Notes under the pieces: generated by a model
Seen by the model: only the letters and a program-made list of their open reading frames with translations
The model's database searches: none
What the model was told of the DNA's origin: nothing
Program-made: the position numbers and the translations under genes
IMG/VR virus record: IMGVR_UViG_2529293142_000033
DNA from: a virus
Taxonomy: Duplodnaviria; Heunggongvirae; Uroviricota; Caudoviricetes
Direction: 5' to 3' (one strand)
Length of the DNA stretch: 54,512 bases
Part shown: positions 42,428 to 43,597 of the stretch, piece after piece
Layout: each line of letters opens with the position of its first letter
Numbering within the stretch: the stretch's first letter is position 1

Positions 42428-43597
42428 ATGAGTCGTTTTTCACATGATGACTACACGTGCGCGATGGTGAATCTTCTGCCATCGGGGATGGCGTGGAACC
42501 GGCTGCCTGACAGCGTGCAGTACAGGCTGATGCGCGGGCTGGCGCAGGCGTACCGGCAGAGTGATGCTGATGCGTGCGCCCTGATAACGGGGGCCTTCCC
42601 GGAAACGGCGGATGCGCTTACTGATGAGTGGTATGCCTCGCTGGGGCTGAATGATGAATGCGGAACGCAGGCATCCACCACAGACCCGGCGCAGGCCAGA
42701 AAATTCATTCTGGCGAAACTGCTGTCGACGGGCGGGCAGAGCGTGGCGTATTTCACGGAGCTGGCGGCGACGATGGGCTACAGCATCCGTATCCGTGAGT
42801 ACCGCACACCGCTGTGCGGGTTTTCGTGGTGCGGGCACCTGCTGAGTGATGACAACCGGTTCAACTGGACCGTGGTGGTGGCCCCGCAGGGGGATGACGT
42901 GACCACCTCACGGGCGTACCTGGAGTGCCTGTTCCGTCGTTATGCCCCGGCACAGACGCTGGTGACGTTTGAGTGGCAGTCGTCATACAGCGCCGTCCTG
43001 AGTATGGCGTGGGACAACAGCACGCGCCTTCTTTCAGGTGCACTGATGGCGGATGAGGGTGTGGTGGTGTCGGGCGTGACTGTGAATGTCGTCATCAAAT
43101 CCATGTCGGGACAGCGGTATGTGGCGACGGTGTCCACAGACAGTGACGGGGGCTGGTCGTTTGAAGCGGATGATGAAACCTTCACAAATGGCAGTTACAC
43201 GGTTTATGCGCAGGCGGACGTGGATATGCCGGATGATGTCACGGTGCCTGTACGAAGCGCGTTACTGAATGTACGGGTACAGACACAGGGTGAGGGGGAC
43301 AACGGTGATGATGAGCCGGCATCTGACGACACGACGCAGGAGCCGCTGGTCATTAACCGGGTGATGCTTCAGTCGGGGCGCACGACGCAGGAGCCGCTGA
43401 TTATCAGCAGGGCACACCTTCAGTCGGGATACCCGACGCAGGAGCCGCTTGTCATTAACAGTGCGATGCTTCAGTCGGGATATCTGACGCAGGAGCCGCT
43501 TGTCATTAACAGTGCGATGCTTCAGTCGGGATATCTGACGCAGGAGCCAGTGGTCATTAACAGGCTCTGGCTGAATTTTGCCGTCACTAATGAGTGA
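42428..43597 (+). CDS. baseplate/tail protein, Mu gp48-like, with C-terminal 17-aa tandem repeats
   Basis: ATG 42428 after gagga RBS; C-terminus carries 4.5 copies of TQEPLVINSAMLQSGYL. Confidence 0.65.
   Translation: MSRFSHDDYTCAMVNLLPSGMAWNRLPDSVQYRLMRGLAQAYRQSDADACALITGAFPETADALTDEWYASLGLNDECGTQASTTDPAQARKFILAKLLSTGGQSVAYFTELAATMGYSIRIREYRTPLCGFSWCGHLLSDDNRFNWTVVVAPQGDDVTTSRAYLECLFRRYAPAQTLVTFEWQSSYSAVLSMAWDNSTRLLSGALMADEGVVVSGVTVNVVIKSMSGQRYVATVSTDSDGGWSFEADDETFTNGSYTVYAQADVDMPDDVTVPVRSALLNVRVQTQGEGDNGDDEPASDDTTQEPLVINRVMLQSGRTTQEPLIISRAHLQSGYPTQEPLVINSAMLQSGYLTQEPLVINSAMLQSGYLTQEPVVINRLWLNFAVTNE
43331..43585 (+). repeat. 51-bp tandem repeat (4.5 copies) within gp48-like gene
   Basis: unit acgcaggagccgct.gtcattaac.g.g.gatgcttcagtcggg repeats with period 51 nt. 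Confidence 0.85.

Follow-up and report, generated by a model that had tools for sequence, protein, structure and literature searches.

A tandem 17-residue repeat at the end of a gp48-like baseplate wedge protein and the gene that accompanies it

Why should a baseplate wedge protein of a tailed virus end in a short tandem array of similar units, and what keeps such an array in place? The question is raised by IMG/VR record IMGVR_UViG_2529293142_000033 (Caudoviricetes), whose whole stretch of 54,512 nucleotides we refer to as the window, and in particular by its gp48-like gene, which ends in five 51-bp units and is followed by a gene for a 354-residue protein that we call ORF354. Taken together, the comparisons described here suggest that the repeat is an old, portable protein module with recent turnover of its units, and that it occurs as a pair with ORF354 behind several kinds of tail protein. 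We regard this gene-pair association as solid and, as far as we can tell, new; literature searches (YmfQ, DUF2313, leucine-rich repeat (LRR)/BspA baseplate, Chi and YSD1 fibres) returned no description of either the repeat or ORF354. As to what the pair does, we lean, if only by a little, towards a portable docking module that would hold ORF354 on the baseplate. The genes, domains and units of the locus given below lie on the plus strand; sampled loci are cited by L numbers, and proteins or protein clusters by P numbers.

The repeat as a protein module

Tandem Repeats Finder recovered an array of 51-bp period at 43332-43564 (4.6 copies, 83% matches, no indels), and its score of 298 is the highest among the tandem arrays of the window. 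Read in frame, the array resolves into five units of 51 bp and 17 residues at 43334-43588, which form the C-terminal end of the gp48-like protein: unit 1 (TQEPLVINRVMLQSGRT, 43334-43384), unit 2 (TQEPLIISRAHLQSGYP, 43385-43435), units 3 and 4 (43436-43486 and 43487-43537, both TQEPLVINSAMLQSGYL and identical at 51/51 nt) and unit 5 (TQEPVVINRLWLNFAVT, 43538-43588), after which come only Asn-Glu and the stop codon at 43595-43597. The first four (43334..43537) are canonical units with the motif (E/D)PLxINRxxLQSGxxTx, and the fifth belongs to a conserved capping type that forms the terminal consensus in 28 non-redundant modules. An earlier note on this DNA had proposed about 4.5 C-terminal copies at 43331-43585, and its position and unit sequence proved right to within 3 nt; what looked like a half copy is a full-length terminal unit type and not a decayed unit, and it is kept in 28/28 of the non-redundant modules examined. 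No family in Pfam, NCBIfam or PHROGs covers the repeat region (residues ~300-389), and a repeat-only query against a database of 5.8 billion proteins returned nothing at E <= 0.01, with composition filtering as the probable cause; relatives of the repeat were retrieved with the full-length gp48-like protein as query. A 123-residue open reading frame (ORF) that crosses the repeat on the minus strand (43262-43633) was dismissed as a by-product of the stop-free repeat.

Across the non-redundant modules, 114 internal units give the consensus (E/D)1-P2-L3-x-I5-N6-R7-x-x-L10-Q11-S12-G13-x-x-T16-x, in which P2, L3, I5, N6, L10, Q11 and G13 are the conserved positions (P2 in 103/114 units, N6 in 93/114, L3 in 88/114, Q11 in 82/114 and G13 in 73/114) and positions 4, 8, 9, 14, 15 and 17 vary freely. 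The terminal unit is always distinct, with the pattern E-P-(L/V)-V-(I/V)-N-R-x-(G/W)-L-x-F-A-V, where all modules (28/28) have L10, and F12 and A13 are each found in 25/28. The period is 17 residues, sometimes 19 or 20, and arrays hold 2 to 7 units. Because the motif positions are kept while others vary, and because the distinct terminal unit is kept as well, we attribute the repeat pattern to selection acting on the protein and not to slippage.

The same module was found at the end of four kinds of carrier, namely gp48-like wedge proteins, side fibres, a lambda-J-like tip protein and a small ORF. Among gp48-like proteins that have no immunoglobulin (Ig)-like domain, P0020 and P0021 have C-termini with 3-4 diverged units (e.g. 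DPMAVNRTNFMSGYKTQ), and five units (e.g. IPLVINRTQLQSAHRPH) close the side-fibre proteins P0024, from Raoultella, and P0025, whose N-terminus is of the phage_tail_N type. In L043 a lambda-J-like protein of 910 residues ends in a (PVDPDK)n linker and about four diverged units of ~18 residues (...IPVKAVCGTTLDSGADLQ KPVKSVYGYLLVTEV), and in L044 a small ORF with two C-terminal units (...HLPLVIKHAVVSVGHEN VLPVLTGRTWLTYLIQN) lies directly upstream of an ORF354 homologue. Tandem double modules also occur in gp48-like carriers (L016 at 5015-5977 and its relatives L017-L021, L023, L028 and L039), the first module having 2 units and closing with ...HFAVVPA and the second having 5 and closing with ...HFAVVTSE; such carriers would hold two partners if each module binds one.

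At the level of single units the array is in motion. Among the closest Escherichia coli relatives, whose proteins are 92-97% identical, it is polymorphic. Strains 377323_2f and EC12, L014 and protein cluster P0001 have five units, and strain 2015C-4136CT1, with no unit 1, has four, as do L015 and cluster P0011, each with only one of units 3/4. In EC12 and 377323_2f the copy of the gp48-like gene is 94-96% identical. Unit 1 is present in triplicate in L013, and unit 2 in P0003 and P0009. Since units 3 and 4 are identical and copy number differs between such close relatives, the array evidently undergoes ongoing unequal crossing-over or gene conversion. A recent expansion had been suggested for it, along with a comparison of copy number in related prophages; copy number does vary among these, and the suggestion stands for the units, but not for the module as such, which we take to be old, under selection and shared by unrelated carriers.

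The gene behind the repeat

ORF354 (43620..44684, 354 residues) starts with TTG, 7 nt after a Shine-Dalgarno-like AAAGGAG (43606..43612) read from the sequence, and its start is equivalent to the RefSeq start in L001 and L002. It has no match in Pfam or NCBIfam and belongs to PHROG 8291, a family of unknown function. Several homologues likewise begin at a Leu-reading codon (window 43620; L006 6861; L007 7271; L008 6850), and these non-ATG starts hint at a deliberately low, or coupled, translation of ORF354 relative to the carrier gene upstream.

We found an ORF354 homologue in every sampled locus that has the repeat module and enough sequence. Homologues with 40-98% identity lie 13-35 nt past the repeat-bearing protein in the window, L001-L003, L006-L022, L025-L032 and L034-L042, and the genes after P0020, P0021, P0024 and P0025, i.e. 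behind gp48-like proteins with no Ig domain and behind side fibres, are 42-54% identical to ORF354 over their full length. In L043 the lambda-J-like carrier has its stop 1 nt before a distant homologue; for the distant members P0051 and P0053, scans of IMG/VR turned up no relatives. A reverse, alignment-based scan that started from ORF354 returned 30 IMG/VR loci and one Escherichia albertii locus, and the repeat module is found, wherever upstream DNA is present, on an ORF whose end lies 13-35 nt ahead of the homologue. L023 and L024, with no repeat directly upstream, are only apparent exceptions that come from a changed gene order, ORF354 standing there after gp48-with-repeats, fibre and assembly protein, in this sequence; no upstream DNA is present for L033, and in L041 and L042 the sequence ends 34 codons into ORF354.

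The converse also holds in the sampled relatives. Neither the repeat-less gp48-like proteins P0018 and P0019, which end after the Ig domain, nor the repeat-less forms P0014 (Big_2), L004 (Big_2 and LRR) and L005 (LRR) have an ORF354 homologue in their loci. Functional relevance of the repeat had been tied in the earlier note to a varying copy number and to its presence in functional homologues; the outcome is mixed, as copy number is not invariant, and although the repeat is absent from many homologues, the partner gene is absent there too. Moreover, a comparison of L012 (a side-fibre carrier with five units) and L016 (a gp48-like carrier with 2+5 units) revealed 91% DNA identity over exactly 6000-7037, a stretch that coincides with the ORF354 gene, start codon to end, and takes in nothing of the upstream repeats; the repeat modules are unrelated at the DNA level. 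Since the identity covers ORF354 only, the gene was exchanged on its own between carriers of these two types, and in both it stands behind a repeat module. This solitary exchange into the same position, together with the joint absence of both elements from repeat-less relatives, argues for a functional dependence between module and ORF354 and not for simple linkage. We suggest further that ORF354 may recognise the conserved motif rather than any particular array. As a separate observation, in L003 (E. coli 2015C-4136CT1, the strain whose array has no unit 1) the ORF354 homologue at 5163-6225 is annotated as a truncated coding sequence of 228 residues, with a gap of ~375 nt between it and the fibre gene, and seems to be disrupted.

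Linker, repeats and ORF354 also behave as a cassette (43258..44689). By blastn the window is 92% identical to L004 over 40002-43257, i.e. to the end of the Ig domain, is unrelated after that, and becomes similar again at 44690, from where the fibre region of L004 and L005 has 85-89% nucleotide identity to the window. In these relatives the position of the cassette is held by Big_2 and BspA-like LRR segments fused to the gp48-like protein. Because homology breaks at 43257 and resumes at 44690, linker, repeats and ORF354 form one exchangeable block, whose place is taken in the relatives by an adhesin-type domain that is covalently fused, and this suggests that the non-covalent pair and the fused Big_2 and LRR domain are functional alternatives. 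The fused forms are of some interest of their own. L004 (4021-8433) encodes a protein of 1470 residues in which the gp48-like and Ig parts continue through Big_2 into a BspA-like LRR domain (E. coli strains DS26-1, E24377A and others have LRR forms), and L005 (4021-6555, strain E24377A) one of 844 residues that has the LRR domain but no Big_2 segment and looks like the longer form after an internal deletion. For a baseplate wedge protein, fusion to a large LRR domain of adhesin type is unusual in its own right.

The ORF354 family is small. At 50% identity it comprises 16 representatives among 1.84 billion proteins, full-length members having 346-368 residues and the rest being shorter fragments, and ORF354 is detectable in ~61/5,426 complete E. 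coli genomes. Searches of ORF354 against Pfam, NCBIfam and the sequences of the PDB gave nothing meaningful. A confident AlphaFold2 model built from 19 sequences (predicted local distance difference test (pLDDT) 81.7, predicted template-modelling score 0.75) has an N-terminal strand and helix followed by two β-sandwich domains (~40-195 and ~217-347), the first of which has a concanavalin A (ConA)-like lectin fold and classifies as a jelly-roll in the predicted structure. The first 15 residues (MNIIxLEGFRQIPA) are the most conserved segment of the family. Among predicted viral structures, full-length fold matches (template-modelling (TM) score 0.55-0.65, E 1e-13 to 1e-11) were obtained with siphophage proteins of ~350 residues from Achromobacter phage AchV4, Serratia JS26, Providencia Kokobel1 and Stilesk, Cronobacter JC01 and others. 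These fold relatives begin MTLLHMDGFDQF, MIRFMDGFDQEV, MAIIDLEGFERLV or MLKFMDGFEQF and have in common with ORF354 an N-terminal h-h-x-h-(D/E)-G-F motif. The best match is a 352-residue 'virion structural protein' of AchV4, AchV4_0026, encoded in the distal tail gene cluster; AchV4_0025 and AchV4_0026 were detected in virions using liquid chromatography coupled to tandem mass spectrometry (PMC7996906, Table 1). We treat the AchV4 proteins as relatives of ORF354 at the level of the fold only. Two other assignments of ORF354 were tried and rejected, that of a Caudo_TAP (PF02413) assembly chaperone, as there is no Pfam match and the assembly protein is a separate gene (45482-46027), and that of a gp38-type fibre-tip adhesin as in T2 and S16, to which we found no corresponding similarity in sequence or fold.

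A proposed docking module and its alternatives

The gp48-like gene (42428..43597, 389 residues) has a start equivalent to the RefSeq start in L001 and L002, with an alternative ATG upstream at 42407 that gives a 396-residue reading. Its earlier labelling as a gp48-like baseplate protein is borne out by matches to Pfam PF10076 (73.3 bits against a cut-off of 37.4, E 2.5e-20), to PHROG 203 (baseplate wedge subunit, E 4e-44) and to Mu gp48 in PDB 9ki1 (E 1.7e-13), and gp45-, gp46- and gp47/J-like genes precede it, with tail fibre and assembly genes after it (Pfam, PHROG and the RefSeq annotation of L001/L002). The Mu gp48 core domain spans 42461..42973 (PF10076 stretch, residues 19-189 of the 396-residue reading). 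In a tblastn comparison with phage records gp48 of Mu, D108 and SfMu matched the window protein over residues ~16-190 only, at ~31% identity across residues 16-188, and no GenBank phage record matched it beyond residue ~200; because the Mu-type proteins align to this part alone, we consider the C-terminal ~200 residues to be an add-on to a Mu-type core. This add-on would begin with an Ig-like β-sandwich domain (42980..43282, residues ~185-285 of 389), which AlphaFold2 models as all β with pLDDT 79-92 and which has a weak match to Big_13 (19 bits, under the cut-off of 27). It continues with an acidic linker (QTQGEGDNGDDEPASDDT, 43286..43333) that is predicted to be disordered (pLDDT <50 at residues 287-308), and ends in the repeats.

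For the repeat region itself the prediction gives no confident stand-alone fold (pLDDT 50-57), only one β strand of 7-8 residues per unit (residues 308-314, 324-331, 341-348, 358-365 and 376-382). Such a poor model fits a segment that orders on its partner, the alignment being shallow at 13 sequences. A further low-confidence stretch in the core (residues 126-143, pLDDT <50) may match the fibre-docking loop of Mu, whose gp48 is BW3, present in one copy per wedge, with the fibre N-terminus docked on an internal loop at residues 133-155 as seen by cryo-electron microscopy (PMC11915804).

On these grounds we infer, with slightly better than even confidence, that the array is a portable docking module for ORF354. 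The array would hang on the flexible acidic linker beyond the Ig-like domain, at the outer end of BW3, of which there would be one per wedge and six per baseplate by homology with Mu, and it would hold the ORF354 product non-covalently at the periphery of the baseplate. Each unit would probably contribute one β strand (L-x-I-N-R-x-x-L) and then a Q-S-G-x-x-T-x-E-P loop, and the hydrophobic terminal unit would close the array; the first 15 residues of ORF354 would be the likely contact with the repeat strands and with that terminal unit, at a stoichiometry that might be one partner per module or one per unit. Once held in the virion, ORF354 could act as an accessory adhesion or receptor-binding protein, probably one that binds glycans, and the 263-residue tail fibre would bind elsewhere on BW3, at the gp48 core as it does in Mu.

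Several observations weigh against docking. The sampled loci are not independent, amounting to ~15 distinct lineages, nearly all of them Enterobacteriaceae prophages, and in a tblastn search ORF354 was present in 0/50,697 GenBank phage records, so that the family is so far prophage-only. Among the 1.84 billion proteins searched, no natural fusion of carrier and ORF354 occurs, all 16 representatives being <=368 residues. An hhalign comparison of the ORF354 alignment with AchV4_0026/0027 was not significant, and the relation consists of fold and N-terminal motif only. The low AlphaFold2 confidence of the repeat could simply reflect the shallow alignment. Lastly the carriers differ in oligomeric state, with BW3 at one per wedge and the fibres and J trimeric, and a docking module must work in both settings.

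The alternative that survives best, which we nonetheless hold to be unlikely, is that the array is itself a short β-solenoid or β-spiral stalk or adhesin, with ORF354 as its folding or assembly factor or as its distal cap. Units of period 17 with conserved Pro and Gly do resemble fibrous repeat folds, the repeats invariably lie at the very C-terminus, the site on which chaperones of fibres act, with the partner gene right behind, the array is not confidently folded alone by AlphaFold2, and its conserved hydrophobic terminal unit resembles a solenoid cap. However, ORF354 has a predicted fold of the lectin or carbohydrate-binding-module (CBM) type that is not chaperone-like, its fold relatives are virion components, a standard Caudo_TAP assembly protein is already encoded, and four to five units would make a solenoid only ~2 nm long. 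In a comparison with the trimeric fibrous folds (the triple β-spiral of adenovirus and reovirus and the triple β-helix of phages), which have short repeats with conserved Pro and Gly turns and three identical chains, the conserved P2 and G13 would fit. The hydrophobic pattern of the units differs from the phi-x-phi-x-phi motif of the triple β-spiral, BW3 is one chain per wedge, so that a single-chain module there would speak against such folds, and the monomer model is of low confidence.

We consider it improbable that the array is a passive spacer of variable length with no specific partner, and that its association with ORF354 is a matter of linked inheritance within a cassette. Such a spacer would account for the variable copy number, for units homogenised by unequal crossing-over and for a cassette that moves as a block. 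It would not account for a motif that is kept position by position at low overall identity or for the conserved and distinct terminal unit, and an acidic or proline-rich linker already stands before the array; moreover ORF354 alone was exchanged between carriers and is still found behind a repeat module.

Quite improbable, in our view, is the reading of the earlier note, in which the repeat may provide an attachment structure of variable length for the fibre, here the 263-residue protein encoded at 44684-45475. In its favour, BW3 (gp48) is the wedge protein on which the Mu fibre docks (PMC11915804), the repeat is placed distally in its protein, and L023 has its fibre gene immediately behind the gene with the repeats. 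Against it, repeat-less relatives keep the same fibre gene (L004 and L005 at 85-89% nucleotide identity, L046-L051 by gene order), the Mu fibre binds the internal gp48 loop at 133-155 and not the C-terminus (PMC11915804), and the repeat is also C-terminal on proteins that are themselves fibres or J-like tips. An attachment structure it may still be in another sense, given its strict co-occurrence with the lectin-fold ORF354. Finally, a recent functionless slippage or duplication, or a DNA-level element such as a recombination hotspot or a set of internal AGGAG motifs, would fit the DNA identity of units 3 and 4 and the AGGAG in each unit of the window lineage, but we give it almost no credence, as the diverged module has unrelated DNA on the four kinds of carrier, other lineages do not conserve the T-Q-E codons from which AGGAG arises, and the array is always in frame and free of indels.

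If the docking module is real, it would be a small natural adaptor and partner pair that has already moved among the baseplate wedge of a myovirus, side fibres and the tip protein of a siphovirus, and that might serve to mount new binding modules on the baseplates of phages or tailocins. PHROG 8291 and a repeat outside all family databases would thereby receive a role, and the module would explain the alternative forms of the wedge protein (bare, Ig only, Ig and Big_2, Ig with Big_2 and LRR, or Ig with repeats plus a separate protein); changes in array copy number could then quickly tune adsorption. A more far-reaching version, which we offer only tentatively as a possibility, is that the repeat belongs to an undescribed plug-and-socket system in the tails of enterobacterial prophages. 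Its strand repeats would be a scaffold, suited to grafting on a wedge, a side fibre or a J-like tip, and would recruit one or several lectin-like proteins through their N-terminal peptide, with the number of units (2 to 7, by unequal crossing-over) setting valency or reach, and with a principle that is maybe scaled up in Chi-like phages. Should the docking reading prove wrong, the gene-pair association would remain, and it is well documented.

Downstream of the cassette lie the tail fibre gene (44684..45475, 263 residues; PHROG tail fibre families, E 1e-30), at which homology to L004 and L005 resumes, and the tail fibre assembly protein (45482..46027; Pfam Caudo_TAP, E 1.2e-23; PHROG 136, E 2e-54). 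Directly after the latter there is an IS21-family element (46908-49210) with istA (46908-48449; rve and a Mu-transposase C-terminal domain) and istB (48461-49210; IstB_IS21, E 2e-67), and what appears, judged by eye only, to be a short IS3-like transposase fragment on the minus strand at 46538-46690. Elsewhere in the window a second in-frame tandem repeat (30132-30328, period 81, 2.4 copies, 84% matches, Tandem Repeats Finder score 289) encodes an acidic D/E-rich stretch within an ORF (30059-30640) that has no Pfam family. At 24585-24770 at least 11 heptamers TGTCCCA/TGGGACA occur in both orientations, including a perfect array of five 8-bp copies (ATGTCCCA) at 24685-24724, just upstream of a GTG-start ORF (~24785) and of a lambda gpA-type large terminase gene (25333-27312); this cluster may represent cosB-like binding sites for the small terminase.

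Comparison with known systems

The N-terminal ~190 residues of the window protein are homologous to Mu gp48 (PF10076, PDB 9ki1) and to YmfQ of the E. coli element e14, and the locus has in common with Mu the order gp44-45-46-47-48 followed by fibre and assembly protein; by homology, the protein would be present once per wedge and would have the fibre-docking loop. Mu gp48 is a chain of 180 residues in 9ki1, and the protein of the window is longer by ~200 residues, made up of Ig-like domain, acidic linker and repeats.

In its supposed mode of action the pair comes nearest to three kinds of system, namely two-component receptor-binding units, baseplate adaptors with separate receptor-binding proteins, and 'evolved' tail proteins. 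The gp37-gp38 proteins of T2 and S16 and gp49-gp50 of Mu are receptor-binding systems of two components, with the adhesin as a separate protein on the tip that the C-terminus of the carrier forms. In Mu, gp49 and gp50 are fibre components (PMC11915804). Similar to the two-component systems, the host-contact unit proposed here consists of a carrier C-terminus and the product of the next gene, with a partner that can be exchanged. However, the carrier here is a wedge protein (and in other loci a fibre or J), the contact would be a tandem 17-residue repeat, and the partner has a predicted lectin-type jelly-roll and not a gp38 or TAP fold; binding is in our case a proposal.

In lactococcal siphophages BppU of TP901-1 holds BppL as an adaptor and Tuc2009 has BppA; there are also 'evolved' tail proteins that contain carbohydrate-binding modules. 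As in these, accessory modules of a carbohydrate-binding type would be placed at the baseplate periphery, either fused (Big_2 and LRR) or as a two-gene alternative; there is, however, no sequence or fold relationship with BppU, the hosts are Gram-negative and the prophages of myovirus type, and the docking element would be a short repeat array. With the ConA-like lectin/glucanase superfamily (CBM4/22, legume lectins, PL7 lyases and sialidase lectin domains) ORF354 has 7-15% identity, no Pfam match and an extra second β-sandwich.

A further parallel is found in Chi-like phages (Casjensviridae), where AchV4_0025-0027 and the paralogues of JS26 match ORF354 over the full length of the fold (TM ~0.6) and have the h-h-x-h-(D/E)-G-F motif. 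In AchV4 (L045, 16050-20991) and JS26 (L052, 949-7477) 3-4 consecutive paralogues of the ORF354 fold are followed by a protein of 578-707 residues that consists almost entirely of strand-like repeats of ~17-24 residues, e.g. YPVQVRAQFAQVLTTTSD or FPDKDLAQSKLQVSQVVEQL, and this arrangement may be the same principle of repeat and partner on a larger scale. It differs from the window in that the repeats form a separate protein of that size downstream of several paralogues, their kinship to the PLxINR units is only conjectural, and the partners have no significant sequence homology. Set beside the two-component fibre tips, the BppU adaptors and the 'evolved' tail proteins, the arrangement described here thus differs in its docking element, in its carrier and in the fold of its partner.

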